A DNA stretch of 64,000 bases from an uncultured Acidobacteriota bacterium (GTDB lineage Bacteria; Acidobacteriota; UBA6911): the NCBI GenBank assembly GCA_963827655.1, contig CAWHCF010000023.1:224001-288000 (forward strand), read 5' to 3'. Made by a program: the position numbers and the translations under genes. This document shows positions 1-57,624 of the stretch, piece after piece (within the stretch, counting starts at the first letter, position 1; every line of letters starts with the position of its first letter). The notes beneath the pieces were generated by a model. That model was not told the DNA's origin, did not search any database, and saw only the letters and a program-made list of their open reading frames with translations.

Positions 1-1
1 C

Positions 2-3045: not shown

Positions 3046-3184
3046 TTTGCGGCACAGGGTACCATCTTTGATCTGCGGATAGAAGCTGTCCGCGCCTTCG
3101 TACGCGAGTTTCGCACAGCCTGAGCGGACGTTATCGTGGCCGGCGCCCGATGGTTTCAGAGCCCAGCGCGGTTCCGAAGATTAC

Positions 3185-3567: not shown

Positions 3568-3792
3568 TGTGTCGAGCGCAATCGTGGGTTCGTACCCGTC
3601 CTTGCGATTTCTCTACGCGACCCAATAAATAATCGGCAGGCACCCCTGGATTTCCGCAAATTCTCCCTTCGTAGCATCGCCTGGTGTATGATTCGCACCG
3701 GTTAGTGGTTCTGACATGGGCGCCATTCCTGGAGGATAAACTGTCTCTCGATCCGAGATGCCTCCTGTTCACACTATGAAGGCAAGACCTCG

Positions 3793-4671: not shown

Positions 4672-4984
4672 CCTCGTCCCCATGTCTGGACCCATTCCCC
4701 AAGAATGCTTAGCGCATCACCTCGATGGTAGACGCTGCCAGAGCGCCTGCAGCCGGGCGCGCCCCCGCACCGCTTGCGTGGCCTTGACTTCCTGGCAAAG
4801 CCATTGGACAATTATCGCTTGCTGGACGTCGTCGCGTCGGCCTTGTCGCTTGGCAGCCCCCGTTGAGAGAACGACAGGAGATGCGCGCTGACGCCGCCAG
4901 CACGAGGAGTGCGCGCTCGTGTCGCGCTGTCTGTTCTACACGCAGAGTTGAACCCATCCAAGTTGACCCATCCGACAGAAGGCC

Positions 4985-6527
4985 ATGACCCAGCAAAGCC
5001 ATTCGAAGGCACAACTCACCCTTTTCGGCGTATTCCTGCTTCTTCTCACTGCCGCCTGCACGAAAGAACCTACGCCGCCGGCGGCCACACCCCAGTCACC
5101 GGAGCGCCAGGCGACTCCAGAGCCGAAGGGCGCGTCCGACGTCCAGTCGCCGGAAAACCCCTTACTTGATATTGCCGCCCGGAAGTGGACCGGCGATTTA
5201 GACGGCATGATCGAGCGGCGCATGGTTCGTGTTTTGACCACGCCCTCGAAGACCACATTTTTCGTTGATCGGGGCACACAGCTTGGTCTGGTGCCCGACT
5301 CCTTCCGGTTGTTCGAGGACGACCTGAACAAGCGACTCAACAACAAGAACATTCGAGTGCACGTCGTGTTCATTCCGGTTGCGCACGACGATCTCATTCC
5401 GGCGCTGCTCGACGGGCGCGGCGACATCGTGGCAGCGACCAAGTTGATCACCGCCTGGCGCAAGGAGCAGGTCGACTTCGCGAACCCGACGAGGAGTGGC
5501 ATCTCTTCAATCATCGTCACCGGGCCCGGCGCGCCGCCGATTGCGACGGTCCAGGATCTGAGCGGCAAGGAGGTCTATCTTCGGACCTCGGACGTTTCGA
5601 CTCAGGGCGTCGAGCGGTTCAACGCCCAGCTTGCCGCGTCAGGCAAACCGCCGGTGAAGATTCGGCCGGCTCCGGAAGTGCTCGCCGACGAAGACATCCT
5701 CGAGATGGTCAACGCGGGTCTGGTCCCCATGACGATGGTAGACGATTACATCGCACAGTTCTGGCAGCAGATCTTCCCGGGAATCGTGCTCAACACAGCT
5801 GCCGCCGTCCGGACCGACGGCCAGACGGCGATGATGATCCGCAAAAACAGCCCGAAGTTGATGGCCGAGCTGAACGCGTTCGTCGCCCGTTACCCGGAAG
5901 GATCGCTGCAGCGCAACGTGCTGCTGCAGAAATACCTGAAGAGCGTCAAGTACGCCAAGGCGGCGACAGCGAAGGAGGACCTCTCGAGGTTCAATCAAAC
6001 CGTTGAGTTCATACGCAAATACAGCGACCAGTACAAGCTCGACTATCTGCTCATGGCCGCTCAGGGATACCAGGAGTCGCGAACTCGATCACAGCAAGAA
6101 GAGTCCGGTGGGAGCGATCGGTGTGATGCAGGTGATGCCGAAGACCGGCGCAGAGCTGAAGGTCGGCGACATCACACGCCTCGATGCCAACGTCCACGCG
6201 GGTGTGAAATACATTCGCTTCATGATGGATCGCTATTACGCCGACGAACCGATGGATTTACTCAACAAGGGCCTGTTCACATTCGCTTCCTACAACGCCG
6301 GGCCCGCCCGTATCCAGCAACTCCGCGACCGCGCCGCAAAACGCGGTTTGGACCCGAACAAGTGGTTCAACAATGTCGAGATCATCGCGGCCGAGAACAT
6401 CGGCCGGGAAACCGTGCAGTACGTCTCGAACATCTACAAGTACTACCTCGCCTACAAAATGCTCAGCGAGCAGAAGCAGGAGCGGTTGAAGGCCAAAGGG
6501 GGACTTGAGGCGAACAGCAGGCAGTAG
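4985..6527 (+). CDS. mltF: MltF-like lytic transglycosylase (substrate-binding + SLT domain), frameshift near 6082
   Basis: Lipoprotein signal and SBP domain in 4985..6508; SLT motifs AQGYQES / GAIGVMQV / ASYNAG / ETVQYV continue in 6003..6527 after one extra A. Confidence 0.82.
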
Positions 6528-6572
6528 GCAGAATTTCGTACTGCCTACTGCTTGCCGCCTACTGCCTGCTGT
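6515..6572. repeat. Heptamer inverted tandem repeat (GCAGTAG/CTACTGC)
   Basis: CAGCAGGCAGTAGGCAG ... CTGCCTACTGCTTGCCGCCTACTGCCTGCTG; overlaps the mltF stop. Confidence 0.7.
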
Positions 6573-6579
6573 TGTGCGT

Positions 6580-6779
6580 ATGCCACAGGTAACGAAATCA
6601 AAACCGGCTTCTTGACGGCGAACAACGAGGAGGAAGTGCTGACCGACTATTTGTGCGACTGGCCCGGCTGTGCGAATGTCGCCGTGCATGTGTTGGGCTG
6701 CGTAAAAGAAATCGCCTCGGTCGCCGCCGTGTGCGAAGAACACCTGGCGGCAATCAAAGCTCGGACCCGCACTCTGTAG
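6580..6779 (+). CDS. Small Cys/His protein (CDWPGC...CEEH), probable indel near 6596
   Basis: ATG at 6580 joins the 6552..6779 frame if one A is added to an A-run; spaced Cys/His suggest Zn binding. Confidence 0.5.
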
Positions 6780-6890
6780 TTTGCGGCCCTACCCGTCGCG
6801 CCCGTTCACCGGCTGGTTCGAGTCAAGGCTTCACTGCAAAGCAACCGCGAAGTCCCGAAGCCTGCAGGAAATCGCGCAGAGGAAATAACC

Positions 6891-7856
6891 CTACTGGACG
6901 ATGAGCATGACCTCACGCCAATTGTAGTGCTCCGCAAGTCCCAGGCCGACCAAGCTTCCGACCAGGGTTCCTACGCCAGTTCCGATCACAAAGCCGTGGG
7001 CTGAATCCTGATCGGCAGCTCCCAGGAGCGCGCCCGAAAAGAAACCTCCGAGCCCGCCGCCTATCGCGGCAGCAAGTCGATTGCCGCCGATATTCTCCCG
7101 GTAAGCCACGGTCGAAATGTGATCGGTCGAGATCCGAATTCGTCCTCGATAGGGTTTTTCGGATGCGTCGGTCACATCGAACTCAATCTCGCTCTCGGTT
7201 CCGTGGATAACCTTTCCCTTCAGGTAAGCGGCATCGCGCAGCATCAGGTGGAGCTTTCGACCTTCAATCCATCGGAAGAGCTGGTGGCGTGGAATCTTGA
7301 GCGTCCAGTTCCTGGCCGGCGCCAGGGGCCTGCCAGTGCCCCCGCGAAAGTAGAGCGCTCTTTCACGAGTCGCCAATCCGGAATCCAGCAAGGTTCCGAC
7401 ACCGGCCCCGATTCCGAAACCATACACGAGCCCGGCAGTCACAGCCGCCGCCGAAAATTCATCGCCATCTTCCGTGAAGGCCGCCCCGATGCCGATACCA
7501 ATGCCGGCGCCGATCCCGGAGCCTGCCAGGACACCATCGCGCAAGCGGTCGTCTGGAACAAGCGCAACCGCAACCACCTTCTCCCGCTCCACTCCGTTTA
7601 TGTCGAGGATCAAACTGGACTCGGTCACTGCCATGAATCTCTGGACCATTCGGCCGCCATTCTCGAGATAGACCGCGATCCGGTTTCCCGGTTTCAGCTG
7701 TTGCAGGTTCTCCCAGCTACCCACGGTACCGGAATCGGGCGGAGTCCCTGGCTGGGTTGGGGCATCGGGCAAGCCAATGTTCATCCGTCTACCGGCGCAG
7801 CCTGTGTTGGCGAGAATCAGAAGCAAAGCACCTGTGCTTGCGAGTATCGTCTTCAC
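6891..7856 (-). CDS. Hypothetical lipoprotein with two glycine-zipper segments
   Basis: GTG start with GGAGG RBS, lipobox-like NTGC, two small beta domains each followed by Gly-rich hydrophobic helices. Confidence 0.65.
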   Translation of the reverse strand: MKTILASTGALLLILANTGCAGRRMNIGLPDAPTQPGTPPDSGTVGSWENLQQLKPGNRIAVYLENGGRMVQRFMAVTESSLILDINGVEREKVVAVALVPDDRLRDGVLAGSGIGAGIGIGIGAAFTEDGDEFSAAAVTAGLVYGFGIGAGVGTLLDSGLATRERALYFRGGTGRPLAPARNWTLKIPRHQLFRWIEGRKLHLMLRDAAYLKGKVIHGTESEIEFDVTDASEKPYRGRIRISTDHISTVAYRENIGGNRLAAAIGGGLGGFFSGALLGAADQDSAHGFVIGTGVGTLVGSLVGLGLAEHYNWREVMLIVQ

Positions 7857-8133: not shown

Positions 8134-8490
8134 AGGTGTGAAAAATTCAGCGAACGGCTCTCGATTGACCGGCGTGCCCTTTGGCTTTTGTGGCGTGGGT
8201 CATCAGAGACTGTCGCAAAACTCGCTCGGTTCATGTGCGGGCGGGCTATCAAGCCCGTCCGGCCTCCGAGATGGCAATGAACTTGTTCGAAATACGTCCT
8301 TCGATCGGGTTTACTTACGACGGGCCAAATCAGATCCGCGCGTTTAGACGTCAGCCGATCTGCCGATTATTCACTGGGATCGCGTAAAGAAATTGCAAGG
8401 ACGGCGTACGAACCGACGGTTGCGCTTCGACGCACAGGTCTGATGACCTGCGCCACAGACCCAATTCATTCCGAGCTTCTCACAGCCCAT
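8134..8490. mobile_element. MITE-like element, family A copy 2
   Basis: 8136-8265 closely similar to 54254-54385; inverted TGTGGCG..GGTCATCAGA at 8189 and 8435-8457. Confidence 0.6.
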
Positions 8491-41141: not shown

Positions 41142-42683
41142 TCAGAGAATGTCGTGAATCACTCGGCCCGCAACATCGGTCAAGCGCATTTCGCGGCCGC
41201 TGAAGTGATAGGTCAGCCTGGTGTGGTCCAGGCCTAACAAGTGAAGAATCGTGGCGTGCAGGTCGTGGACGTGCACCTTATTCTCGATGGCAAAATAGCC
41301 GTATTCGTCGGTTGCGCCATAGATCGTTCCTCCCTTGACGCCTCCGCCGGCCAGCCACATGGTAAAACCGAAGGGGTTATGATCCCGGCCAACCTCCTTT
41401 ACGTAGCCCTCGTCCGGCAGCTGCGCGGTCGGCGTCCTCCCGAACTCCCCTCCCCAAAGCACCAGTGTCTCACCCAGCAGACCGCGAGTCTTCAGGTCCT
41501 TCAGGAGCGCGGCAATCGGCTTGTCGACCGCCTGCGCGTTGACTCGATGACCTGTCTCCAGGCTGCCGTGTTGATCCCACCGGTCGATGCCCTTCCTCGA
41601 GGGGGGAAGCAGTTCGACAAATCGCACCCCTCGCTCAACCATGCGGCGCGCCAGCAGGCACTGCCGGCCGAATTCTTCCGTATCCGGCTCGTCCAGCCCG
41701 TAGAGTTTCCGCGTGGCTTCCGATTCACTCTTCAGGTCCAACAATTCGGGGACTCCGGCCTGCATGCGGAACGCAAGCTCGTAGTTGGAAATCGTGGCTT
41801 CGAGCTCGCTTACCGCGCCCAGACGATCGAGCACACCCTGGTTGAGTTTGCCGAGGAGGCCGAGTTTGTTCGTCTGCAGCTCGGGGGCTTTCTCTCGCGC
41901 CTGGATATCCGCGATGGGATGCTCGCCGCGCCTGAACAAGGTTCCCTGGTATGATGCGGGGAGGAATCCGCTGCCGAACAGGTCGAGACCGCCCGGCGGA
42001 ATCAAGCCGCTCTCGAGCACGGCGAACCCGGGGAGGTTGTCACACTCACTCCCCAGGCCATAGTTAACCCAGGCGCCCATACTGGGCCGCCCCTGAAAGC
42101 CCGAACCGGAATGCATGAAGTAGTTCCCTGCCGTGTGCTCTGAATGATCCGCTACCATGGAGCGGATTATGACCATGTCATCGACGCACGTGGCGAGGTT
42201 GGGAAAAAGCTCGCTGACCTCCGCTCCGCACTGGCCATATTTCTTGAACTTGTACGGCGAGGGGAGAATCTTGTTGCTGATATTGAAAACCGTCGTTGGC
42301 GTCTCAAAAGGTATGGCCCGCCCGCTCTCCTTTTCGAGCCGCGGCTTTGGATCAAACGTGTCGATCTGAGAGGGTCCGCCGTCCATGAACAGGAAGATGA
42401 CCGATTTTGCTTTCGGCGCGTAATGAGGCGGTCGCGGAGCCAGAGGATTTCCGGCGCGAGCGGATGCTGCAGCGGCGAACTTGTCCGCCAGCAGATAAGC
42501 CAGCGCCAGCCCGCCAAAACCGTTGGCACACCGGCACAGCATTTCTCTGCGGCTCACTCCAGGCCTGGAAAGATCGACTCTATGGATTGACGATTTACGA
42601 TTGACGATTGACGATTGAATCCTACTTTCCTCAATCGTCAATCGTAAATCGTCAATCGTAAATCCCTTCGGATTACCGGACAT
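41142..42683 (-). CDS. DUF1501 (sulfatase-like, Tat) protein
   Basis: SRREML, IFLFMDGGPSQIDTFDPKP, RPSMGAWVNYGLGSE, WDQH, GEFGRTP, GRDH, HDLHATILHLLG. Confidence 0.9.
   Translation of the reverse strand: MSGNPKGFTIDDLRLTIEESRIQSSIVNRKSSIHRVDLSRPGVSRREMLCRCANGFGGLALAYLLADKFAAAASARAGNPLAPRPPHYAPKAKSVIFLFMDGGPSQIDTFDPKPRLEKESGRAIPFETPTTVFNISNKILPSPYKFKKYGQCGAEVSELFPNLATCVDDMVIIRSMVADHSEHTAGNYFMHSGSGFQGRPSMGAWVNYGLGSECDNLPGFAVLESGLIPPGGLDLFGSGFLPASYQGTLFRRGEHPIADIQAREKAPELQTNKLGLLGKLNQGVLDRLGAVSELEATISNYELAFRMQAGVPELLDLKSESEATRKLYGLDEPDTEEFGRQCLLARRMVERGVRFVELLPPSRKGIDRWDQHGSLETGHRVNAQAVDKPIAALLKDLKTRGLLGETLVLWGGEFGRTPTAQLPDEGYVKEVGRDHNPFGFTMWLAGGGVKGGTIYGATDEYGYFAIENKVHVHDLHATILHLLGLDHTRLTYHFSGREMRLTDVAGRVIHDIL
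42583..42666. repeat. Heptamer inverted tandem repeat (GATTGAC/GTCAATC) inside the DUF1501 N-terminus
   Basis: GATTGACGATTTACGATTGACGATTGACGATTGA ... TCAATCGTCAATCGTAAATCGTCAATCGTAAATC. Confidence 0.8.
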
Positions 42684-45600
42684 AGATGAACTCCGCCGAG
42701 TTGAGCAAAACATGGCACAGATCCGCCCACGCTTCACGGGACTCATCCCCGGTGCCGCCCGAACCGGAGAGATCCCGATACCTCGCGGCTTGCGATTCGA
42801 CGAACTGCAGGGCTTGCGCTATTTCCACGTTCTCCGGAGGCCGGCCAAAACCCGTCAGGTAAAGTCGTTCCACACGCTTCCGGTTGTCGTCTTCGGCGCC
42901 CATGATCCGGCGCGCCCATTCCCGCGCTTCAAGCGCAACCAATTCGTTGTTCATCATCAAGAGAGCCTGCGTCGGCACGGTTGAAACACTGCGGTTCCCG
43001 ATGGTCGAGATGGGAAGCGGGTAATCAAAAGCCAGGAACATGGGTGTAATGAAGTTTCGACGCACTTGAATGTAGACACTGCGTCTCCCGGCCCCGTCCA
43101 GCGGTCCCGATTCAGGCTTCCCTCGACCATCCTGATACTTGCTGATATGGGGCGGCACGCCCGGCCCGAACAGTTTCCCATCAAGCGTTCCCGCAACAGC
43201 GAGAATGGAATCGCGGATGACCTCGGCCTCCAGCCGCCGCACCGGCATGTGATGAAGGAGCTTGTTTTCGGGGTCGATCCCGGCAGCGGCTGTGTCGGCC
43301 TGGCTCGACATGCGATACGTGCTGCTCAGCAGGATCCTGCGCTGGATGGACTTCACCGACCATCCGCCTTCCCGGAATTGATGAGCAAGGTAGTCCAGCA
43401 ACTCCGGGTGGGTAGGACGATCTCCGGTTTTTCCGAAATTATCGGTCGAGCGAACAATTCCAGAGCCGAAGTGATGCTTCCAGACCCGATTGACCATGAC
43501 CCGCGCTGACAGTGAATTCGCCGGGTTTGAAACCCATTCGGCCAGCTGCAATCGTCCGCTCTGCTGAGCGACGGCGGGCTGATCGCGGCCCGCAATTACT
43601 TGCAGGAAACGCCGGGGGACTTCCTCTCCCAGGGTCTTGTGGTTTCCTCGAAGGTGAATCCGAATGTTGCGGGGATTCTCATCGCGCGCGACCATGGCAA
43701 ATGCAGATTCCGGCACCTCCCTCTCCAGCTCTGACCGGCGATTCTGAAGTTCGGCCAGCTTCGCCAGCTCCTGACCGGAAAGCAGGCAGGCAAGGTCTTC
43801 CAGTTTCCTCGTCGGACTGAACGCTGAGACCGTCCGGCGCGCGTCGTTATCCAACGTTCCGGTTCGCGCCCATGCGCTGCTGAATAGCTTCTGGTAGGCC
43901 TCCGCCAGCGCCTCCAGAGTCGTCACATCGGGCGTCCGGAGCAGCGACTCCACAAGCGCATTCGGGGGCGAAGTTTCGGACGGAGGTTGCTTCGAATCGG
44001 AGAGGACGATCTTGTCGACAGCGATATGACCCTCACGGCTGCGATCGACGATCTCAAAATAGCAGATCCGCCCGATCTCTTTCGTCAACCGCATCGTCTT
44101 CCACTGAAAATCGGGATTCCCGTCCGGCACGACGTGCAGGCTCTTGTGGCTATCGGCCACGATCGTAAGACGCAGCCTGGCCTTGTCTCCCCTCTGTGGT
44201 TCCTTGCTTCCCGCGATGCGCGCGTGAAGATAAAGCTTCGGCACCTTGAATTTCACGGAAGTCAGACTGCCAACGAGTTTGTCGGAGCCGCTGCCGAACG
44301 AACTTGCCGAACTTTCGCCGCGAAAGCCGCGCAGCTCCTGATTGGGAGGGACTTCGCGCGTCGGCCCTTCGCCGAAAGCCTGACCCGAGGCGCTCCACGC
44401 CTGATAGTCCGAGGCTTCGAAATCTTCGTAGAGAATCTCCTCCGAGGCCTTGCCATCGGCCGGCCTCACGCCGACTCGCTCGCTGAGACGTTTGCGGATA
44501 AGCGCCCAGTGCATCTGCGAAGGAAACGCCCTCCCTTGCCATATGCTCCACCGCCGCGGCGAACGGATAAAACAGGTGATCGGTTTCCTTTTGGGCCTGC
44601 TCAAGAGAACTTACCCAGGCTCGCAGCAACGCCTCATTCAGGCCGCCGGCCTTGGCCAATTGTTCCTCGCGCGACTTCTGTCCGTCTTTTTCTGAAGTGA
44701 GCACCCCGGCTGCCGCCACGAGGTAATCCTTCATCCGCTCCGCCAGCCTGGCCTGGGCCGGTTGAATCATCTCTCTGATCTGGTCGTTTGCATCTGAGAT
44801 CTTCCGGCGCAGCGAGGCAATCTGTCGAGAGCGCGCGGGCGCATCCACGACAGCCTCGGTGACGTCGGTGCTATGCATCATGCCGGCCAGGGCGTAATAG
44901 TCGGAGGTGGGGATGGGATCGAATTTGTGGTCGTGACAGCGGGCGCAGGCCACGGTCAAGCCCAAAAAGGCCTTGCTCAGAACATCGATCTGATTGTCCA
45001 CCTGGTCGGCGCGGGATTTCACCGAATCGGTCGCGCTGTTGAGCACCTCGCCAAACCAGTAGAAATTGGTGCCGAGGGGGGATTCCCAATAAGATCCGTC
45101 GGAACTGATCCGCTTTTCGGCTATGAGGTCTCCGGCGATGTGTTCCCTGACGAACTGATTGTAGGGAACATCATCGTTGAAAGCCCGAATGACGTAGTCC
45201 CGATAACGCCAGGCATCGAGCTTGTCATTGTCAAACTCGTGGCCGTTGGTTTCGGCAAAGCGCATCAGGTCGAGCCAGTGTCGTCCCCAGCGTTCGCCGT
45301 AATGAGGGGAAGCAAGGAGTCGATCCACTACCTTTTCGTATGCGCCGGCGGAATCATCCGACAAGAAGGTGTCGATCTCCTCGGGAGCCGGCGGCAAGCC
45401 GATCAAGTCAAAAGTGACACGACGGATCCAGGTACGCTTGTCGGCCGGCGGCGCAGGCTTCAGGCCTTTCTCCTCCAGTTTTGCGAGAATGAACCGATCG
45501 ATGGGAGAACTGGGCCAATCGCTCTGCTTGACAGTCGGTAGAGGCGGATTCTGAATCGGTTTGAAAGCCCAGAATTTCCGGCCCTCCTCCAGATCGATGC

Positions 45601-46042
45601 CCTTACGCTCCGCTTCCGTGGCCGGCACAGCTGCGGCAGTACGCGGGTCCGGAGCTCCCATCTTGATCCAGTCGATCAAGTCGGCGATCTGCTCGTCGGG
45701 CAGCTTGCCGTTGGGCGGCATCTTCAGATCGAGGTGCCTGTAGGAAATCGCCTGGATGAGAAGGCTTTTTTCCGGATCTCCGGGAACGATCGCCGGTCCT
45801 CGATCGCCTCCCTTCAGGAGACTGTCCCGAGCGTCCAACCGGAGGCCCCCCATCGGCGGTTTCGATGATGCGCTGTGGCAGAGATAGCACTTCTCAACCA
45901 GGACGGGGCGGATTTTCTTCTCGAAGAACTCCTCCTGCTGGGGATTTCCTGCGACTTCCACGTGCGAGTAAGGGAAAAGCAGGGCTGTGGCTAAAGCCAG
46001 TGCGGAAGCAAAGAATCCGAGTGCGGACCGAAGATTGCGCAT
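42673..46042 (-). CDS. Planctomycete-type cytochrome c / PSCyt2 (DUF1549) / PSD1 (DUF1553) protein, frameshift near 44500
   Basis: CYLCH, YGERWGRHWLD, CARCHDHKFDP in 44150..46138; ARVMVNRVW, THPELLDYLA, RRLEAE, EFIYVR in 42673..44604. Confidence 0.9.
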
Positions 46043-46238
46043 GAGGCGATGTTTTTTTGTTACCAGCCGACTTCCGTTAGCGGTCAGTAGTATCCCACGA
46101 ATCAGCGTTCCAGGCGAGGCATAATAGGCCACCACCAAGCCGCGAAGACGCCAAGGAATACAAAGGCGACCCTAGCGCGGCCTGATGCCTTCGATCGCGA
46201 CAGACTGATGTATGATAGGGTAACCGAGAAGATTACAA

Positions 46239-46625: not shown

Positions 46626-46821
46626 GGGGCGTCCGTTAGGATGCTTCGCGTTTCTTGGTGTCTTCGAGTCTTCGTGGTTAGTGCGGCGGAACAAAACCAA
46701 CCACGAAGACACGAAGGCACGAAGAACCACTAAGAGCACTTTAGGTTACGCCTTCCGGGCCTCCTGCGTCGTAGCCGTAAGGTTGGTTTTGTTCTTGTCT
46801 TCGCGGTGAACGACTAACCGG

Positions 46822-47338
46822 TTAAATGATCGGTCTGGTTCCTATCCAGAAGATCAGGACATAGGCCACCCAGCCGATCAAGCACACGACGGCAGCGCGG
46901 GGGGTGCTCTGATAGTCCAGCGCCTGCCGCACGGCTATGATGTTGGCCACGAGCAACCAGACGGTGATCAGGAAAACCAGGAGCCACGCCGATAAGGGGG
47001 AGGATGCCTACAAACCGCAGTAATCCGGGGGCGCTGGCGAAACCGATCGTGCGCAGCATCTCCGGGATGTTCGATTTCGTCTGGGGCTCCGGCAGGAGCT
47101 TGGTGCCGATGAAATAAATCAGAACGGCCCAGATGGCCCACCCGATAAGCGACACGGCAGTCAGGCGCAACATCCCGGTGAAACCTCCAAGACCGTACGA
47201 GCCAAGGCCGGCAGCAAGGCTCGACAGTACGACGACCGCCATTGCCTGGCCGGTCGCCGCCGGGTCGCTCTCTACTTCTTCGAAGATTCGGACTTCCAGC
47301 TTTGCAGCCCCGATGACGCGTTCCCCGAAACTGGACAT
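46822..47338 (-). CDS. Yip1-family membrane protein, frameshift near 46985
   Basis: R.IGAAKL...FEEVESD..ATGQA, LRTIGFASAPG; second frame AVRQALDY.ST.RA..VC.IGW ending at TAA 46822. Confidence 0.8.
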
Positions 47339-47380
47339 ACGCTTTCCTCCCTCTCTGTACTCTGATGGTAAGACGGTTTC

Positions 47381-50300
47381 TTAAGACGGCCTCAGCACAA
47401 GCACGGGAGTAATCCGCTCCAGGGTCGAAGGCCCGCCATGCGAGAAGGCTCTGCCGTCAAGCCCAAGGCGGAATCCATGATCTCCAAAAACGACGACCGG
47501 TTGGCCAGGGTCGAGCCGCGGGACTATTCTCCTGAGGCCGACCTCCAGCTCGGCGCGGGTAAGGCGCGCAAGACTGTCGAGATCGGATCTCCGATTATGA
47601 ATCAGAGTATCGATACCATCCAACTTCTCGAACGGTTTCTGCAAGCCCTCGTCGATAAGAGCGCGGTAGAACTCGTCGGTCGAGGTTTGACGCGAAACCA
47701 GACCGAATTCAATCGCCTCCATTTTCCAGCGCGCCAGGCAATCACGCAGGGTTTCACGCACAGTCGCGAGCAGCGGAAGACCGAGCGCGTCGATCACGAT
47801 CCATTGCGCATTGAGATGGCGCCGAAGCACGCTGGCAAGGAGGCAAGGGGAAGGCGACAGCTCGATCTCAGCCAGCTGGTTGAGCCGCGTCAGCCAGAGT
47901 TGCGGCCGCAACTCCAGGAACCGCTCGTTCTGCTGGTAAAGGCTCGAGACTTTTTCGGCCAGGATTTCCGGAGATGCCGGCTGTTGAGGAGCCAGGAGCT
48001 CTAACGCCGCCGCGACCGCACCCCGGGATGGCCGGGACTTCGGCGCAGGCACGAGCCCGTCCAGAACCATAGACAGGATACGCCGGACGGCCTCCTCGCC
48101 CAGCTCCATCTGCTCGAGCTTGAGGAGACTCTCTTCCGCCACCCACTTGGGTTCAATAAGACCGGCGATGATGGATTGCTCCGCAGGCGAAAGAACGGCG
48201 GGCAGCGGGGAGCCATGCCTGAGAGCTTGTTCCGCAGCCCAAGCCAGAAGGTCGGTTCCCCGGGCAGGCTCGCGTCTCCGAAAGGTGATGCGCGATCCCA
48301 GACTGCTCAAGAAGCGCTCCAGTTCTTCGAGCAGGGCCGATTTTTCCCACAGCCGTTCTCCCAGGAGATCCACAAGTGTTTCGGCGCAGACTGTTTGAAC
48401 CAATTCAACACCCGAGAGGTGCTGATCGAAGAGCGACAGGTTTTCAACATCGGGATAGCCGGCCTTTCCTTCCAGGTAAGAGAGGGCCTGGGTGTTCAGT
48501 TCGAGCTTCTGGTCCACCCATTCCTGAATCCGCATCTTTACCTTATCCTGCTGGAAAAAGAGCTCGAGCTCCTGCTCGAGCCGTTTCTCGGCCTTTTCAA
48601 AGCGGCTCAATGTTTCACCCAGCGGGCTTTCTCGTCCATCGAATCCGCAACGGCAGACAGGCTGGAAATCCAGGGGACTCATTCCGGCGCAGCGCTCGGC
48701 CTGGGCCTTGGCTTTCAGGCTCTGAAGCTCGCTCACCAGATCCTGGGCCGCGAGATGGCGGCTGCGCGCCATGCGTGGGATCTGGTAAGACCATACCGCA
48801 TGACGGCCCACCGACTCGCGCCACTCTTCGTGGCGCCGGCGGTACCAGTGCCGGTATTTTTCATACACGGCTTGAGCCTGCGTCAACCACGCTTCGAGCT
48901 TTTCCGGCTGGGCCAGCGCGGGAGCCGGGCCCAGTGTCTCGAAGCCGGCGCGAACGCCCGGATCTTCGCAACCCGACAGGGAGGGATAGCCGAACAGGTG
49001 GCGGAAGCGCTGCGCTTCACGAAGGAGCTTCTCGAAGCGCGGCGGCAACGTCATCATCTCGCGCGCCTCGTTAACGAAGCGCGGGGGCGATCCTATGGCA
49101 AAAAGGAAATGCTGCAAGCCTTGCAGTTCATGCTCGCCCTTTTCCAGCGCCAGCCACGCGGCGATCAGCTTCTCAACCCGGTCGCTCAGGTCGCCGGTCT
49201 CTTGCTCCCTCTGCAGCTGAGCCAGAAAATCACCGAGCCGGTCCCGCTGGCTGCCGCCGAATTTTCGCAGCTGTTCGATCGCGCGCTTCTGCGCCAGCAC
49301 GGTCCACTGTTTGGGAATCGAGACATCGAAACCTTCACACAAGACTTCGAGGTCGCGAAGCTGGTTGAGAGTCAGGGCGCGGCCGGGGACGATCTTGTCG
49401 TATTGCAGTGGCTTGATCAGCGTCTGGTAAATCTCCCGATAGGAACGCTGCCCCTTGAGGATATCGATTTCCCCCTGGATCAGGAGAGTCAATAACAGCA
49501 GATGGATCTGATCCGGCACCAGGCCATAAACCGGGCCGGCGAGATTCTGATAAATGCGAGCCGGCGAGGGATGGTGTTCGAGAATAGGAGCGATCAGCCG
49601 GACCAGCTCGTGGCCGTCGAGCCTGGGATTCATCGCGTAGTCGGCCCCGCGCCGCTGCATCAAGCGCATCGGAACCAGGTAGGCCTCGCGGATCAGTTTC
49701 ACGAATTCGGGCGCCTCTTCCGCGCCCAGGTCGTGCTCGGTCGAGTACTTCATGAATTGACGGTACGCTTCCTTGGGGAGCGGGCCGTGGCTGGGAGCGA
49801 ATCGCTCGAAGAGCGGATAGGTCTGTCTCAGCAACCATTCACCGTAGGCGTTGAGCCACGCGGTTTGTCCCCCTTGCATCGCATCGATCGGCGCGCCTGT
49901 CTGGGCGCCGGTCGGATCGAACACAGCCGCATCGTTGTAGGCGGCGCGCACCAGAGAGGAAAACCAGGAGCTTCGCCCGGCAATGCGTTCCCCAACCTGC
50001 TGGAGCACGCGACCAGCCAACGGGCGCTCCCGCAGTTGATACAGCGCCGCCAGCTCGAGCACCTCGGGGCCGAGTTCCAGCTTTCGTGGCACAATCCTGA
50101 AACACCCGGTTCCTTCGGCCGGTGGCCCCCAGGGAATGCCAATTTGAAGGGCCGGACCGGCGGCTTCCGGCGGAGTGCCGCCGCCTAGATAGAACTGCAC
50201 CTCACGGTCGTGGAAGTACCAGCGCAGGTTGCGAGCATGCCAGCGATCCCGCGGGAGCGTAAAAGGATTAAAATCCGATCGCGCCAGGCTCTCGAGCAGG

Positions 50301-51664
50301 GTCTCAAAGACCGCATCGCCGCGAGTCTTCAATTCCTCCACGCTGCGTGCAATCAATCGGTCCAGGGACTCGCGGCTTTCGCCTTCCAGGTCGAGCGCGT
50401 AGCGCGGCCCCTTGCGCTTGAGGAAAGCCCCTTGTTCCACCAGCGTATCGAGAATCCGCTTGCAGATCTCCCGGTTCCGGGCTGGATCGAGCTTCGACAC
50501 TTTCAACAAAAGCCACTGGGCCGCTTCCCCGGCATCGAGCTGCTCGCGGCGCGGGGAGAGGTGGACGAGGATCAACAGCTTCAGCAGGCGCCAGGCGAGC
50601 TCCTGCTCAGGCTTCCGGGCGAACAGCGACGGTATCTGCTTCCGGTAATACGGGAGCAGCTTTTGACCCAGGGGCAAGAACTCCGGCTGAATCTCGAACA
50701 GGTCGGCAAAATGGTCGGCGATACAGTCCGGCGTTATGAGCTGCCCCCAGGGTTCATCAAGAAACGGCTGTATACCCCGGGCTTCGTTGCCCAGCAACCG
50801 AGTCAAGGTAAAATCGATGATGCCGCGCGCCTGCGAAAAGCGATCGCGCACCTCTTCGAGCAGTTCCAGGGTGGTTGGATGAAGCGGATAGATTTCGCAA
50901 AACTCGGCGAAATTTACCGAGTCCTTCGGATAAACTTCCATCAGCTCCTTGGCGAGACGCGCTACGGCGGTCGAGTACGACGGCTTCTTGCGCAGAATGC
51001 GCTGCGCGATCAGGTCCTTGACATGGGCGGGAGTGAGCAGGAAGCGGATCGGGTACCGGTCTCTGATCTTGCGGTAAAGGTCATACTCCATTTCGCCGGC
51101 GTGCTCGATCTGCTCCTGAATCGCGCCCAGAACCCACAAGGAATGAGACTGGGCCCATTCGCCCAGGAACTGAAGGAACCTGAGATCTTCGTTGAAGCTC
51201 TGGGGAGAGGGCTTGGAGCGCAGAAACTCGGATAGTTCATCGAGAATCAAAACCAGACCCTGGGGGTATCGTTGCTGGATTCCTTTCCAGCTCACGCGCC
51301 GGTCTGATTGCTCGTGTGTGGCCCCGAGCGCCTCGTTCAGTATGGATTCGAGCGACTGCGAGGATCGATAGTGCAGCAGCGACAGCGCCAGCACCGCAGG
51401 GTTGCGGGAAACAAAAGCGCTGCCTTCGAGCTGCTGGGTCAGGTAAGCCAGGAAATGCGACTTTCCCGCGCCGTAGTGGCCGATCAGGAAAATGCCGCAA
51501 CCGGTTTCCTTGGCAAGCAGGAGTCTGAGCGACTGAAAATGCCGTTCGACTTCTTCGGTAATATAGTATCGATCGCTGATCCAGGAGGAATCGGCCTCCT
51601 TGAGTTGATCGAGGCGCACCACAGTGGGCTGCGCCAAAACGTCGACGTGGTCGCGAATCTTCAA
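47381..51664 (-). CDS. BrxC/DUF6079-type P-loop ATPase fused to a C-terminal PglZ-like (alkaline phosphatase fold) domain
   Basis: MKIRDHVDV..PTVVRL start, GHYGAGKSH Walker A, LILDE Walker B, KIRDRY, YPLHP, C..PVCRCGF; C-terminal WIVIDALG, QTST, IDTLIH, GDHGF, HGGPSTLERITP. Confidence 0.8.
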   Translation of the reverse strand: MKIRDHVDVLAQPTVVRLDQLKEADSSWISDRYYITEEVERHFQSLRLLLAKETGCGIFLIGHYGAGKSHFLAYLTQQLEGSAFVSRNPAVLALSLLHYRSSQSLESILNEALGATHEQSDRRVSWKGIQQRYPQGLVLILDELSEFLRSKPSPQSFNEDLRFLQFLGEWAQSHSLWVLGAIQEQIEHAGEMEYDLYRKIRDRYPIRFLLTPAHVKDLIAQRILRKKPSYSTAVARLAKELMEVYPKDSVNFAEFCEIYPLHPTTLELLEEVRDRFSQARGIIDFTLTRLLGNEARGIQPFLDEPWGQLITPDCIADHFADLFEIQPEFLPLGQKLLPYYRKQIPSLFARKPEQELAWRLLKLLILVHLSPRREQLDAGEAAQWLLLKVSKLDPARNREICKRILDTLVEQGAFLKRKGPRYALDLEGESRESLDRLIARSVEELKTRGDAVFETLLESLARSDFNPFTLPRDRWHARNLRWYFHDREVQFYLGGGTPPEAAGPALQIGIPWGPPAEGTGCFRIVPRKLELGPEVLELAALYQLRERPLAGRVLQQVGERIAGRSSWFSSLVRAAYNDAAVFDPTGAQTGAPIDAMQGGQTAWLNAYGEWLLRQTYPLFERFAPSHGPLPKEAYRQFMKYSTEHDLGAEEAPEFVKLIREAYLVPMRLMQRRGADYAMNPRLDGHELVRLIAPILEHHPSPARIYQNLAGPVYGLVPDQIHLLLLTLLIQGEIDILKGQRSYREIYQTLIKPLQYDKIVPGRALTLNQLRDLEVLCEGFDVSIPKQWTVLAQKRAIEQLRKFGGSQRDRLGDFLAQLQREQETGDLSDRVEKLIAAWLALEKGEHELQGLQHFLFAIGSPPRFVNEAREMMTLPPRFEKLLREAQRFRHLFGYPSLSGCEDPGVRAGFETLGPAPALAQPEKLEAWLTQAQAVYEKYRHWYRRRHEEWRESVGRHAVWSYQIPRMARSRHLAAQDLVSELQSLKAKAQAERCAGMSPLDFQPVCRCGFDGRESPLGETLSRFEKAEKRLEQELELFFQQDKVKMRIQEWVDQKLELNTQALSYLEGKAGYPDVENLSLFDQHLSGVELVQTVCAETLVDLLGERLWEKSALLEELERFLSSLGSRITFRRREPARGTDLLAWAAEQALRHGSPLPAVLSPAEQSIIAGLIEPKWVAEESLLKLEQMELGEEAVRRILSMVLDGLVPAPKSRPSRGAVAAALELLAPQQPASPEILAEKVSSLYQQNERFLELRPQLWLTRLNQLAEIELSPSPCLLASVLRRHLNAQWIVIDALGLPLLATVRETLRDCLARWKMEAIEFGLVSRQTSTDEFYRALIDEGLQKPFEKLDGIDTLIHNRRSDLDSLARLTRAELEVGLRRIVPRLDPGQPVVVFGDHGFRLGLDGRAFSHGGPSTLERITPVLVLRPS

Positions 51665-51680
51665 TAGGGACCTGCTCTAA

Positions 51681-51912
51681 GGGTTCGCGCAGAAATAAGT
51701 TCGCATTCTGCTGCAGGCCCCCAGGCCCGCTGGCGAGGCGCGAGCGACGATGCGTACCCGGTGCGGTACGTGAGGAGCGAGCAACAAAGCCAGCGGGCCT
51801 GCGGGCCGCAGCCCGAAGGGGCGCGATCCTCAGCGTGCTTAGCGAACAGAAACCGGTTCATGATTGACACAGACTCTCGCGCCAGAATGTGAAGTGATTT
51901 ATGCGCGAGCCC
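51681..51912. mobile_element. 232-bp MITE with TAA target duplication
   Basis: 16-bp TIRs GGGTTCGCGCAGAAAT / GGGCTCGCGCATAAAT (14/16), TAA on both flanks, internal long palindrome with central CGTACC-GGTACG. Confidence 0.75.
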
Positions 51913-51964
51913 TAAGTACCCTGTTTGCTTTCTGAATGTACCATAGACTCTTCGCGTCCCGGCG

Positions 51965-52991
51965 GTGGATTCCTTTTCAATCATTGACCGCGAAGTCCGG
52001 AAGACGCAAGGAAAGTCAGCGAAATTGTCCAAGCAGTTCCTTCAAGCTCTGCAGCGTAACCTGCGGCAAGCTTTGAACCAGAATCATGCCGACGAAGCCG
52101 CCGAGATCCTCGACCGCCTCAAGAAGGAGGACCCGCTGTCGCTGGAGACGCGCGGGTTCGAGCTCGAGTTCTACTTGAAATCAAACCGGCTGAGCGAAGC
52201 CGAATCCCTCGCCCGGCAGCTCTGTCACCTGTTCCCGCAGTCGGCCCGAATATTTCCTGTTGGCCGGAAAAGTGGCCTACCGGCAGAAGCGCTACCTGGA
52301 GGCAGAGGCTCGCTTTCGGGAAAGCCATCGGATATTTCCGCACTGGCGCACCGCGCACTGGCTCGGGAAGACCCTTACTCAGTCGGGGAAACTCGAGGAG
52401 GCCGAGCCGCTTCTGCTCGGCGTCGTCGAGCATTCCGGCAACGCGCGACTCGATCTGGCCTGGCTTTACGAGAGGCGAAACGATTTCGATGGTGCGCTCA
52501 AGCAGTACGATGCCTTTCTCGAGCACAACCCGGCTCACACGTTCGCAATCGAACAACAGAAGCGCCTGAAGGCGAAAATCCTCGATCCGGACGCTTTGAT
52601 CGAGGAGGTCGACGCACTCGCCGAGTGGGGAGAGCAGATTCCGGACGCGCTCGTTTCAGAGCTCGTGGAGAAGCTGTTTCAAACCGGCGACAGCCTGCGT
52701 GCCCGCGCCGAAATCACGGCGCGGCTGGGGAAATTCGATACCCGTTTGGGAGTTCGGGTCGCATGGGTTTGCCACAAGTATCAGGCCTATGATCTGGCCT
52801 TGAGCCTTTTCCAGGCATTTCTTCCAGCCAATCTGTCGAACTACAAATACCTGAGGGCGCTCGAGTCGGCTGCAGCCCGGTGTCATCGTGTGCCACAGGT
52901 CATCGAGGCTTATCGAGCGCTGGCAGGGCAGGCTCCGCATCTCCACGGCCGCATCAAGTCGCTGGCCCGGCGCAGTCCGCGTGAAGCATAA
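51965..52991 (+). CDS. Tetratricopeptide-repeat protein, frameshift near 52253
   Basis: Helical TPR-like repeats (AGKVAYRQKRYLEAEARF, WLGKTLTQSGKLEEA, LAWLYERRNDFDGA); ORFs 51965..52792 and 52260..52991 join after one extra T; no signal peptide. Confidence 0.78.
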
Positions 52992-53055
52992 CAGCCGAAC
53001 TGGAGTGGCGACGCGCTTCGCCAAACCAGGGCGCGAAGCGAGCTCTTAACCTTAC

Positions 53056-53276: not shown

Positions 53277-53491
53277 CACACTAACGTATCGACTGCAAAA
53301 GACTATACAACGGCTTTGTGTTGAGAGTATTTTATCGTCGCGGCCTCCCTCCACGCTGGAGCCCGGCATCATCGTGCTAATCGTAGAACCGTTGGATTTC
53401 TCGCGCGCGCCTTGCCTGGCGCAGCCGCTGCTCAGCACGACGTCAAGCCGATAAGGCCGTTGTGCAATCGAACCCGAGAAAGGAGTCATGC

Positions 53492-54196
53492 ATGGCACTG
53501 AGTAATCGCTTGGCGGCCGAGTTCATCGGCACCTTCTGGCTGGTTCTGGGTGGCTGTGGCAGTGCTGTTCTGGCGGCAGCATTTCCAGATGTCGGAATTG
53601 GTTTGCTGGGGGTATCGTTCGCTTTCGGACTTACGGTGCTGACTATGGCCTATGCAATTGGCCACATCTCCGGCTGTCACCTGAATCCCGCGGTGTCGGT
53701 CGGCCTGAACGTCGGTGGTCGCTTCAAAACGTCGGACCTGCTTCCGTATATTGTTGCCCAGGTCCTTGGCGCAATTGTTGCCGCCGCGGTGCTGTATTTT
53801 ATCGCAAGTGGAAAAGCGGGCTTCGATGTCAGCGGTGGTCTTGCGTCCAATGGATACGGGGAACATTCTCCCGGTGGCTATTCGCTGGCCGCCGGGCTTG
53901 TCACCGAGGTCTTAATGACCTTCATGTTCCTCATAATCATCCTGGGCGCCACCGACGAGCGCGCACCCAAGGGATTGGCGCCGATCGCCATCGGGCTGGG
54001 TCTCACGCTGATTCACCTCATAAGCATCCCAGTTACCAATACCTCGGTTAACCCGGCGCGTAGCACCGGACCTGCCGTGATCGTTGGCAGCTGGGCACTC
54101 GGCCAGCTCTGGCTGTTTTGGATAGCGCCGATCATCGGAGCCGCGCTTGCGGGTGTCGTATATCGCTGGCTCGGTGGCGCCAAGAGCCAGGCGTGA
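53492..54196 (+). CDS. aqpZ: Aquaporin Z
   Basis: [38 protein letters not shown]. Confidence 0.96.
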
Positions 54197-55085: not shown

Positions 55086-57624
55086 ATGAAGCCGTTGAGC
55101 GAACTTCGACAGTTTAACCTTTCTATGGATCGGTGTCTTACTCCTTACCCTGGCCGCCGCCCATCCTCAAGATCAAGTCGGCGACAGGGTCTTCGAGCAG
55201 GAGGTCCAGCCGATCCTGCAAGCCCGCTGCATGCCCTGTCACGACGCCAAGACGCGCTCGAGCGGCCTGTCGGTCCTGACCAAGGCAGATCTGCTCGCCG
55301 GCGGTGCGCGGCGCGGACCGGCCGTTGTGCCCGGCGATCCCGAGTCCAGCGCCCTGATCAAGATGCTCTACGGCCAGATCTCTCCGCAGATGCCCTTCGG
55401 GCAGGATCCCCTTCCCGCCGAGCGGATCAATCAGATCGCGGCCTGGGTCCGGGGTCTGAAACCTGAAGCCGTGTCGCAGGCGGTTAACGAGAAATGGTGG
55501 GCGTTCCAGCCCGTGAAGAGAACCGAGGCGCCCGCGGTAAAGAACTCTTCCTGGGCTCGCAACGACATCGACCGCTTCGTCCTCCAGAAACTCGAAGCGA
55601 AAGGTTTAGCGCCGTCACCCGAGTCTCCGAAGCAGATCCTGCTGCGACGGGCATTCTTCGATCTGGTCGGGATGCCGCCCACACCCGAAGAAGCGATGGC
55701 TTTTCTGAGCGACAATCTGCCCGATGCCTATGAGAGGCTGATCGAGCGTCTGCTGGCCGATCCCCGGTATGGCGAAAGGTGGGGACGGCACTGGCTTGAT
55801 CTTGCCCGATATGCCGATACCCAGGGTTTCGAGGCCGATCGCGAGAACTACCACATGTGGCGGTACCGCGACTACGTGATCCGGGCCTTCAACGATGACA
55901 AGCCTTACGACCGGTTCATCCAGGAACAAATTGCGGGGGACGAGCTGGCGCCCCAGCCGCCCGAGGCCCAAATCGCCCTGGGCTTCCTCCGTCTCGGCCC
56001 GCGCTTCCAGACCACCATTGTCAGAGAGGCGCGACAGCTGATGCTGGATGAGATCACCTCCACCATTGGATCGGTCTTCCTCGGCCTCACGATGAAGTGC
56101 GCCCAGTGTCACGACCACAAGTACGATCCTATCCCTCAGAAGGACTTTTATCGCCTGCAGGCTTTTTTGCTTCCCGTCGAGGTTGTGGATCGTCCGTTCC
56201 AGTTCACAGACCCGGAACTGCGCGCGAAGATGGAGCGGGCCCATGCCGAAACCAGCGCGCGCCTGAAGAGCGATGAGGCGAAATTCAAGACCTATCAGCA
56301 GGCGTTGATGGCCAGACTGAGTGATCCGGCAGACAAGGCCGCCGCTGATACCGACGATGATGAAGGCGCGCCCGGAAAGATCGACCCGAGGATCGCGAAC
56401 CTGGAAAGGCGGATCTACCGGGTTGACGCCAATGCGCTGACGCCCAATGCCGAGGATTCAACCTTTACCCTCGAGGAGAAAGAGAAATATCTCGATCTGC
56501 TGAGCTACGTCGACGGAACCCGGGGTGGACGCGACATGGGATTGACCCGGCGCCAGCTCACGCGATATGAGCCGAAAGCGCACACGGTCAAGAATGCCGA
56601 TAACTCCGCGCTCGGACCCGCTCTTCCCGTGGCGCACGTGCGCATCCGAGGTGAGTACAACCACCTGGGTGAAATCGTGGAGCCCGGGTTTCTCAGCGCG
56701 GTCATTGGTAAACCCGATCCTGCGGTTCTGCCGGCAGACCGATTCGGCAACGTCCGGGCCTGGCGGACGCCGCTGGCCAACTGGATTGCCAGCCCTGAAA
56801 ACCCATTGACGGCCCGCGTGATGGTGAATCGGATCTGGCAATACCATTTCGGCAACGGCATCGTGACCACTCCGAGCGACTTTGGCCGCAACGGATCACG
56901 CCCCACACATCCCGAGCTGCTCGATTGGCTCGCGCTGAAGTTCGTCGAGAGCAAGTGGAGTATCAAAGCGATCCATCGGCTCATGATGACCTCCAGCACC
57001 TATCGACAGACGTCGCTGGGGCCGGCCGAGAAAAAATGCGAAGAGGTCGACCCCGGAAATCTGCTGCTCTGGCGTATGAACCGACAACGCCTGGAAGGTG
57101 AGATTATCCGGGATAGCGTCCTGGCCGTCAGCGGACTGTTGAATCCCGACCGAGGGGGACCCGGTGTCTTTCCGCGCTTGCCCGCGGCGATGTCGGAGCG
57201 TCTGCGAATCAAGAACCTGCCCATCTGGGAACCGAGTGACGGCCCCGAAACGCGCAAGCGCTCCGTGTATATCTATCAGCGCCGCCAGCTGGAAGTCCCG
57301 TTCCTCTCTGTGATGGATGCGCCCGTTTTCCAAACGTCGTGTGAACGGCGCGGGGTCTCGACCACGGCCCTCCAGTCGCTCATGATGCTGAACGGAGATC
57401 TGGTCTCGCAGGAGGCGGTTCATTTCGCCGAGCGCGTGGCCCGCGAGGCCGGCCCGAAGCCCTCGGAGCAAATCCAGCGGGCGTTTCAACTCGCTCTGGC
57501 GCGGCCACCGACGGCCGAGGAGTTGAAGGAAGCACGCGATTTTCTTGCGGCGGCAGACAAAGAAGGACTCGTCGGCCTTTGCCGAATCCTCTTCAACACG
57601 AACGAGTTTGTCTATGTGGATTAA
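55086..57624 (+). CDS. Planctomycete-type cytochrome c / PSCyt2 / PSD1 protein (probable indel near 55115)
   Basis: Signal peptide and FEQEVQPILQARCMPCH lie in frame upstream of 55231; YGERWGRHWLD, CAQCHDHKYDP, THPELLDWLA, EFVYVD. Confidence 0.9.

Follow-up and report, generated by a model that had tools for sequence, protein, structure and literature searches.

In a 64,000-nucleotide (nt) stretch of contig CAWHCF010000023.1 (assembly GCA_963827655.1, positions 224,001 to 288,000), from an uncultured Acidobacteriota bacterium of the lineage UBA6911, we have analyzed a gene in which a BrxC-type ATPase is, with very high probability, naturally fused to a PglZ-type catalytic module. The whole stretch is referred to here as the window. 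The gene encodes a single chain of 1427 amino acids (aa) and lies beside a gene for a tetratricopeptide repeat (TPR) protein (Table 1). An earlier note on this DNA, made from the letters alone, had reported one uninterrupted open reading frame (ORF) carrying a series of BrxC-like and then PglZ-like motifs; translation of the complementary strand agrees with this, every motif being present and in the order given. The module descends from parts of bacteriophage exclusion (BREX) systems, yet by the features tested (methyltransferase, BrxA and BrxB) it is not a BREX system.

The same arrangement is found widely. Of 5.8 billion proteins searched, 408 matched; among the 120 matches listed, 117 span 99% or more of the query, with identities of 44–99% and lengths of 1411–1480 aa, so that the fusion can be taken as a conserved architecture. 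Where the sources of these homologues give a name at all, it is just “DUF6079 family protein” or “hypothetical protein.”

A long frame of this kind could also be an assembly artefact joining two genes, and the contig had been called indel-rich. Extra single bases are in fact there, but only outside the fusion ORF. We aligned the region 47300–53000 with Logan contigs from four metagenome runs of four studies (X1, X2, X3, and X5) at an identity of at least 92%. Relative to short-read contigs from between one and four of these studies, the window has one base more at 47355, 47361, 47377, 52001, 52008, and 52252–52257; a further length difference, at 51867, is inside a repeat, and the first three positions fall just past the stop codon of the fusion gene. 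The extra bases agree with assembly errors of the insertion type in this contig or, alternatively, with differences between strains. Between 47378 and 51866 these contigs contain zero inserted or deleted letters, and those of X3 span 47300–48688 unbroken, i.e., they bridge the BrxC/PglZ junction (single runs leave parts of the ORF uncovered, which is not evidence of absence).

Some homologues also resemble what an artefact would predict. One (L020) has an in-frame stop (8206–8211) exactly where the BrxC-like part gives way to the connector that follows, and two from Planctomycetia metagenome-assembled genomes (L022, 4108–4834; L023, 6266–6402) stop about 10 aa past the BrxC-like part; in L022 neither connector nor PglZ sequence was found in the next 690 nt. 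These variants indicate that the boundary near aa 1130 is a true module boundary. On the other side, four independent assemblies report the ORF without an indel, nearly all of the listed homologues are full length, and every match to the C-terminal module at the level of the phylum terminates an open frame of 1426–1468 aa. We consider an artefact hardly conceivable, and the fusion stands.

Anatomy of the two halves

The N-terminal part had been assigned to the BrxC/DUF6079 proteins of the type 3 BREX kind, and Pfam, PADLOC, hhalign, and Foldseek agree on it. Pfam DUF6079 (PF19557) scores 83.5 bits (gathering cut-off 23, E 8.6e-24) over two stretches, the best of them at residues 130–286, and the PADLOC BrxC models match down to 8e-21, with SspC and DndF weaker. 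As a reference we used a 1241-aa DUF6079 protein from plasmid pBMJM1_5 of Leisingera thetidis, which is encoded in an annotated brxF-DUF6079-methyltransferase-helicase-pglZ operon, i.e., a type 3 BREX. A profile of 44 family members aligned to it by hhalign with a probability of 99.5% (E 3e-22, 525 columns); the match to that one BrxC covers residues 1–544 of the query, and no similarity was recovered beyond about aa 545. With an AlphaFold2 (AF2) model of aa 1–1130 (mean predicted local distance difference test, pLDDT, 86.5; predicted template modeling score, pTM, 0.44), Foldseek found Acinetobacter BrxC as the best match (9zll_A, 9.6e-10; 9zdx_C, 2.2e-9), followed by archaeal and eukaryotic Cdc6/ORC (7.5e-6). 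The Walker A and Walker B motifs are intact, residues G62, G65, G67, K68, S69, H70, D142, and E143 are invariant in 44 sequences, and the ATPase is an AAA+ of the ORC/Cdc6 type with a BrxC-like fold.

The domains that follow the ATPase in BrxC are described in the accessible part of 10.1101/2025.10.09.681413, from which we have taken the domain names; the boundaries within aa 376–785 are our own reading of the AF2 secondary structure. In its secondary structure the model fits the order found in BrxC, i.e., winged helix-turn-helix, alpha+beta, winged helix-turn-helix, and coiled coil with a tip, but the solved BrxC chains are only about 550 residues long and the hhalign match ends at aa 544. 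In the arm, H945 (nt 48830–48832), C992, C1004, and C1006 do not vary among 44 sequences that include both clades of the family (see below). From this conservation we infer a candidate Zn site at the arm tip, reminiscent of the Rad50 hook.

The C-terminal module was modeled with high confidence (pLDDT 96.1, pTM 0.91). Neither the last 298 nor the last 198 aa matched any Pfam family at E up to 1, and the PADLOC PglZ model matches the last 28 aa only (E 0.015). However, a profile of 45 C-terminal sequences compared with the Protein Data Bank retrieved PorX (7pv7, E 1e-6) and the BREX PglZ proteins 9nv3_C (3e-4) and 9zn5_B (0.016), the PorX match beginning in the region of the helical connector. 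In the structural alignment (VIA), residues 11–298 of the model correspond to 297–750 of PglZ 9zn5_B and residues 86–298 to 129–517 of PorX; the next families are ENPP, sulfatases, MCR-1/EptA, and phosphoglycerate mutase, with scores of 6–8. The alkaline-phosphatase fold proposed for the C-terminus is therefore borne out by a confident model and by an invariant set of metal ligands and nucleophile, and it is closest to proteins with PglZ domains.

Ten positions are invariant in the 45 sequences, which include the distant clade: D1292, T1329, D1352, H1356, D1395, H1396, G1397, H1409, G1410, and E1416. The catalytic residues align with D, PT.T, D..H, and HGG of PorX and with D, PT.T, D..H, and DHG of the type 3 BREX PglZ. 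A two-metal ligand set and a Thr/Ser nucleophile thus appear in canonical order, T1329 being the candidate nucleophile. We take the order D/T/D..H/DH/H to be that of two-metal enzymes of the alkaline-phosphatase superfamily with a Thr nucleophile, and have assigned metal 1 and metal 2 after the NPP (nucleotide pyrophosphatase/phosphodiesterase) enzymes. The last 140 aa or so are a PglZ core without large inserts.

The helical stretch ahead of this core had been described as a linker. It is helical, but it is not a separate linker: the structural alignment to PorX and PglZ covers it, indicating that it is the counterpart of their pre-core helical segment and belongs to the PglZ/PorX-type module. 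Such a segment preceding the PglZ core is described for PorX and PglZ in the accessible part of 10.1101/2025.10.09.681413. The connector is preceded by the BrxC-like arm, and the alignment leaves the PglZ residues before 297 unmatched, no search having been aimed at an N-terminal PglZ domain.

Shorter proteins were also seen. One of them, a 308-aa fragment of a family member (P0186), looks like a decayed copy, in which the first-strand Asp, the His of D..H, the Gly of DHG, and the His of HGG are replaced. Short proteins of 270–356 aa that match the whole C-terminal profile were considered as stand-alone PglZ modules and rejected; we read them as fragments because the 10 that were fetched carry residues of the BrxC-like end upstream or start at a residue other than Met.

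Table 1. Features of the fusion gene, its partner, and the repeat between them (positions are those of the window).
Feature	Residues	Nucleotides (strand)	Remarks
Fusion gene		47381..51664 (-)	1427 aa; TTG start 51662-51664; stop codon 47381-47383; no internal stop
AAA+ ATPase core and lid, ORC/Cdc6-type	1-375	50540..51664 (-)	Pfam AAA_22/NACHT/AAA_16 and DUF6079; fold match
N-terminal motif	1-18		LKIRDHV..PTVVRL
Walker A	62-70	51455-51481	GHYGAGKSH
Walker B	139-143	51236-51250	LILDE
KIRDRY motif	199-204
YPLHP motif	259-263
Middle part: winged-helix-like, beta-rich alpha+beta, winged-helix-like	376-785	49310..50539 (-)	AF2 secondary structure
Long helical, coiled-coil-like arm	786-1055	48500..49309 (-)	AF2 helices; carries H945, C992, C1004, C1006
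Late Cys motif		48647-48691	C992..QPVC1004RC1006
Small terminal alpha/beta sub-domain closing the BrxC-like part	1056-1130	48275..48499 (-)	AF2 model
End of BrxC-like part	about 1116-1127	near 48290	RFLSSLGSRITF
Helical connector	1131-1285	47810..48274 (-)	AF2; matches helical segment before the PglZ core in PorX and BREX PglZ
Minimal PglZ/alkaline-phosphatase core	1286-1427	47384..47809 (-)	D1292, T1329, D1352, H1356, D1395, H1396, H1409, E1416
IVIDALG motif	1289-1295
QTST motif	1326-1329		Holds T1329
IDTLIH motif	1351-1356
GDHG motif	1394-1397
HGG-type C-terminal motif	1408-1420		SHGGPSTLERITP
MITE-like repeat		51679..51912	234 bp, inverted ends of about 32 nt; between fusion and TPR genes; not part of the module
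TPR partner gene		51965..52991 (+)	Divergent; about 320 aa (profile of 321 positions); homology starts at 52028; Pfam TPR repeats

Partner gene, clades and distribution

We collected 80 loci from species-representative genomes, plus the window, and clustered their ORFs (crudely called, as the longest non-overlapping ORFs of at least 70 aa). The TPR family, found in 48 loci, was the sole cluster present in more than 8 of them, and besides it this clustering gave no recurrent neighbour family. The gene had been called stand-alone, which is correct in that it lies outside a BREX operon but not strictly so, for it has a conserved partner; of the one- or two-gene system suggested before, it is the two-gene version that applies. 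The position of the partner was tallied by a six-frame profile search in loci with at least 1100 nt upstream. Two loci were left out, the opposite strand having been chosen for them (L024 and L054); both carry the full fusion gene and L054 the TPR gene as well. In the short clade (48 loci) the TPR gene was within 600 nt upstream in 38, always on the opposite strand, and elsewhere in the locus in 4. In the long clade (21 loci) it was within the same distance in 17, always co-directional, and elsewhere in 1. The pairwise identities of the fusion proteins and of the TPR proteins are correlated (r 0.90 over 253 pairs from 23 loci, with means of 0.44 and 0.41), a value that shows co-inheritance only, because related loci are not independent. 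A search of the ESM Atlas with the TPR partner gave generic TPR clusters only.

In the window the TPR gene is split. A profile of 30 partners matches it in two frames, positions 3–78 at 52028–52255 (E 2e-32) and 78–318 at 52254–52976 (E 4e-101), the frame changing after ..SARIF, where an extra base near a TTT (52252–52257) splits the gene. The contigs of all four runs are one letter shorter at this point, so that either an assembly error or a change peculiar to the strain of the window is the probable cause of the break. Between the two genes lies a repeat that resembles a miniature inverted-repeat transposable element (MITE). Of 188 candidate copies in the same genome 40 were scored, and these include 40 full-length copies of 95–100% identity. 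Contigs of X1 and X2 join 51678 to 51913, indicating that the site is empty in related strains. Its summed depth in four soil and rhizosphere metagenomes is 3000–7000, against about 10 in the flanks. Being in the divergent intergenic region, the repeat may affect expression of the module. A 123-aa ORF overlapping the start of the fusion gene (51661–52032, complementary strand) was rejected as a gene; it belongs to no family and overlies the MITE.

The family falls into two clades that end in the same kind of C-terminal domain, a short one of about 1430 aa and a long one of 1540–1824 aa. The long clade (L053–L080, e.g., L060:10001–15370 and L076:5377–10851) is a deep sister group that comes from Bacillota, Nitrospirota, Calditrichota, and others, has about 350 extra residues ahead of the shared C-terminal catalytic half, and spans positions 1–1186 of the 1238 in the DUF6079 profile. 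A FastTree phylogeny of 58 full-length proteins separates the two clades with 100% support and groups the window with Acidobacteriota (long-branch joins were flagged for L063 and L026). As the C-terminal domain is common to two clades so clearly split, the fusion is ancient. Phylum labels change 17 times along the tree, where the minimum is 11 and shuffled labels give a mean of 32.8.

The distribution is rare and patchy, as expected of accessory genes. Within the same family, 7 of the 36 other genomes searched carry the full protein; among 24 genomes from different families of the class, none does. In two genera of the family the carriers are 1 of 16 and 1 of 9. Across the phylum, the C-terminal module occurs in 5 of 301 genomes, that of the window included. 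Searching 1.84 billion representative proteins with a profile yielded 1132 matches at E up to 1e-3, of which 408 remain at 1e-10 and 148 at 1e-30; among the matches listed, all were family members or fragments. Carriers that are cultured and harmless, as named by their sources, are Sulfidibacter corallicola, with a copy of the short clade, and Neomoorella stamsii DSM 26217, with one of the long clade (L076).

Neighbourhood and relation to BREX

The neighbours had been named as Yip1, a TPR gene, and aqpZ, and they are so: besides the TPR gene, Yip1 is at 46814–47338 on the same strand as the fusion gene and a MIP/aquaporin gene at 53462–54196 on the other. Genes of the PSCyt/PSD1 type lie beyond these. 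Two of their ORFs, 44150–46138 (PSCyt1 and PSCyt2) and 42673–44604 (PSD1), both on the complementary strand, overlap by 455 nt in different frames, and in an intact paralogue at 55231–57624 the three domains are in one protein. The pair at 42673–46138 is probably another frameshifted gene.

We scanned 134 ORFs flanking 45 short-clade loci (4 of 138 having been dropped; only the top 25 families were listed). The most frequent Pfam families were ABC_tran (6), AAA_21 (5), and SMC_N (5), followed by metabolic enzymes. PADLOC matched mad3/mad8 (6), AriA (5), and ATPase-Toprim (4), probably the same ABC-type ATPases cross-matching, as well as one Septu pair and, in two cases, AbiEii. Methyltransferase, helicase, BrxA, BrxB, and BrxL were all absent from the families shared by at least two of the 134 flank ORFs. 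The system had been proposed as methyltransferase-free, and no methyltransferase recurs near the homologous loci, although no genome-wide search was aimed at methyltransferases. Nor does any BREX gene recur at the 45 loci. The combination by which we would recognize BREX, a PglX-type methyltransferase with BrxA/BrxB or a helicase, is lacking in the locus.

It could still be argued that the fusion belongs to an ordinary BREX with its methyltransferase and remaining components elsewhere in the genome, the more so as the assembly (8.18 Mb) is only 90% complete and methyltransferases as such, too common to be informative, were not searched. However, this genome has no match to the BrxB profile and no second DUF6079 was found in it; BrxA had zero matches too, but the BrxA control matched no genome at all. 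The sole other match to PF08665 is a 391-aa NPP-type phosphodiesterase (PF01663, 1.7e-36). With the 45 homologous loci equally devoid of a recurrent BREX gene, a scattered BREX seems to us very improbable. The NPP-type gene itself (G000:C9:62255–62500; L081:1057–2229) is beside an alpha/beta hydrolase and is unrelated to BREX.

The module can be compared with the known systems part by part. Like BrxC of type 3 BREX, the fusion protein has an ORC/Cdc6-type AAA+, the same N-terminal motifs, and a long helical C-terminal arm, but it is longer by about 300 aa through the C-terminal PglZ-type module, and it is accompanied by a TPR protein instead of BrxF, methyltransferase, helicase, and PglZ, with no BREX operon. 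With BREX PglZ (9zn5_B, 9nv3_C) it has in common the helical connector and, after it, a core of the alkaline-phosphatase type in which the catalytic residues keep their order; however, the core inserts and the C-terminal domain of PglZ, and apparently also its N-terminal 300 or so residues, have no counterpart in the fusion, whose core is of about 140 aa and does not score with PF08665. The fusion core is joined to the BrxC-like part, whereas BREX PglZ is tethered through BrxB, according to the accessible text of PMC13326643.

Nearer in composition are the BREX-related (BR) systems and a HerA/FtsK-centred system with DUF6079 and PglZ, which, as far as the accessible texts go (Rakesh & Krishnan; 10.1101/2025.10.09.681413; PMC12839542), also combine a BrxC/DUF6079 or DUF499 ATPase with a trimmed PglZ outside canonical BREX. 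As described there, those systems comprise three to seven genes, among them ones for helicase, methyltransferase, STAND, and HerA, and they encode BrxC and PglZ separately, in contrast to the single chain found here. The texts of this survey of BREX and BREX-related systems, as accessible, mention neither a TPR protein nor a BrxC-PglZ fusion, and its supplements could list such proteins. The same applies to the literature on DUF6079, on BrxC/PglZ with TPR, and on PglZ fusions (including 10.64898/2026.10.19.760177), in the accessible parts of which neither a BrxC-PglZ fusion nor a TPR partner was found and the supplements of which may list them. The two-gene architecture of BrxC-PglZ fusion and TPR protein is well supported and, as far as we could find, undescribed in print.

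Possible mechanism and role

In recent work PglZ emerges as the likely nuclease of BREX and BrxC as its likely ATP-driven scaffold, the two being joined through BrxB (PMC13326643; 10.1101/2025.10.09.681413). In type 1 BREX, BrxB bridges the AAA+ domain of BrxC and the N-terminus of PglZ, ATP binding stabilizes the assembly so formed, and PglZ introduces nicks and cuts into DNA (PMC13326643, accessible text). Since BrxB bridges the two proteins and PglZ cuts DNA, a direct fusion of BrxC to PglZ would make mechanistic sense, at least as far as that text describes them. We propose a two-metal phosphodiesterase/nuclease that is bound to DNA, gated by ATP, and controlled by the TPR protein, because a PglZ connector and core are fused to a BrxC-like part while BrxB, the methyltransferase, and apparently also the BrxB-binding N-terminus of PglZ are missing.

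By analogy with BREX we infer a DNA substrate, gating by ATP, a regulatory role of the TPR protein, and a function in defence, along the following lines. The AAA+ part would bind ATP and DNA, and the ATPase part may pair by way of its AAA+ faces and of the Cys/His site at the tip of the arm. Direct covalent joining would stand in for the BrxB bridge between PglZ and BrxC of type 1 BREX, and the TPR protein could be a sensor or a brake. Upon a trigger, the PglZ core, with Thr1329 and two metal ions, would cut phosphodiester bonds, probably those of DNA. The outcome would most likely be interference with foreign DNA (phage or plasmid) that is independent of methylation and does without epigenetic self-marking. 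For this reading as a whole, a BREX-derived fusion working with a TPR protein and acting against mobile DNA, we put the chances at about even.

Several observations weigh against it. Each half agrees with some models of its family and not with others: the BrxC-like part scores 55.8 bits with NCBIfam BREX_BrxC (NF033441), below its curated cut-off of 400, and a scan of the genome with the Pfam PglZ family (PF08665) did not report the site of the fusion gene. The TPR gene is absent from the fetched flanks in 6 of the 48 loci of the short clade and in 3 of the 21 of the long clade, and in the window itself it is frameshifted, with a MITE in the shared promoter region. The 134 flank ORFs indicate neighbourhoods that are mostly housekeeping rather than defence islands. 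Searches of 72,556 plasmids and 50,697 phages found no family member, the plasmids giving only distant type 3 BREX DUF6079 proteins of 21–24% identity. The domains are evenly conserved (mean pairwise identity 0.36–0.62) and there is no hypervariable region; for BREX BrxC, fast-evolving DNA-binding parts or a hypervariable region are described in the accessible part of 10.1101/2025.10.09.681413. Finally, the PglZ core resembles BREX PglZ less than it resembles PorX, which is an oligonucleotide phosphodiesterase.

This last point would suit a core that works as in PorX, hydrolyzing cyclic or linear oligonucleotide signals and not DNA, so that the pair would serve signaling or regulation, the TPR protein being its input. 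However, PorX (7pv7, 8thp, 8ted) is a response regulator of type IX secretion with a PglZ domain, a dimeric signaling protein without an AAA+ ATPase, and both its receiver domain and its large insert (about 60 residues in the alignment) are absent from the fusion. Response_reg had no match on the fusion protein, nor did any other signaling domain of Pfam, at E up to 1. The core is, moreover, fused to a 1130-aa protein of the BrxC type, with relatives that act on DNA, the neighbourhood shows no recurrent cyclase or other gene for making a signal, and the higher scores of PorX may just reflect high-resolution PorX structures compared with the hybrid model 9zn5. We consider the PorX-like function unlikely.

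A similarly low probability is given to a housekeeping or stress machine for DNA maintenance, in which an SMC/Rad50-like arm with a Zn tip would work together with a nuclease and have no role in immunity. The invariant H945, C992, C1004, and C1006 of the helical arm, the uniform conservation across domains, the housekeeping flanks, and a tree that largely follows phyla (17 label changes, well below the shuffled mean) are all consistent with it. Yet a gene carried by 5 of 301 genomes across the phylum, and by 1 of 16 and 1 of 9 in two genera of the family, is far too sparse for a core function, and all recognizable relatives of both halves belong to BREX or related conflict systems. As the module is rare and patchy and its neighbours are mostly housekeeping genes, a role in defence is plausible but unproven.

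Within the reading as a BREX-derived defence module, we suggest only tentatively, and with some doubt, that the TPR protein and the fusion make up an immune or DNA-surveillance system that is self-contained, independent of methylation, and derived from BREX, with ATPase and nuclease in one polypeptide and the TPR protein as the trigger. Were this true, the BrxC-PglZ pair alone would be the restriction engine of BREX, and the two proteins would provide a model for solving how BREX stops phage. In the databases, about 150 clusters are labeled only as “DUF6079 family protein,” their catalytic C-terminus and partner gene going unremarked. For the mechanism of phage restriction by BREX, the fusion makes it testable whether BrxC and a PglZ core suffice for activity and how ATP binding gates the phosphodiesterase. 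Joining ATPase and PglZ without methyltransferase, helicase, BrxA, or BrxB, the module, much smaller than the six-gene BREX, may be a stripped-down relative of it and a possible minimal model for its mechanism.

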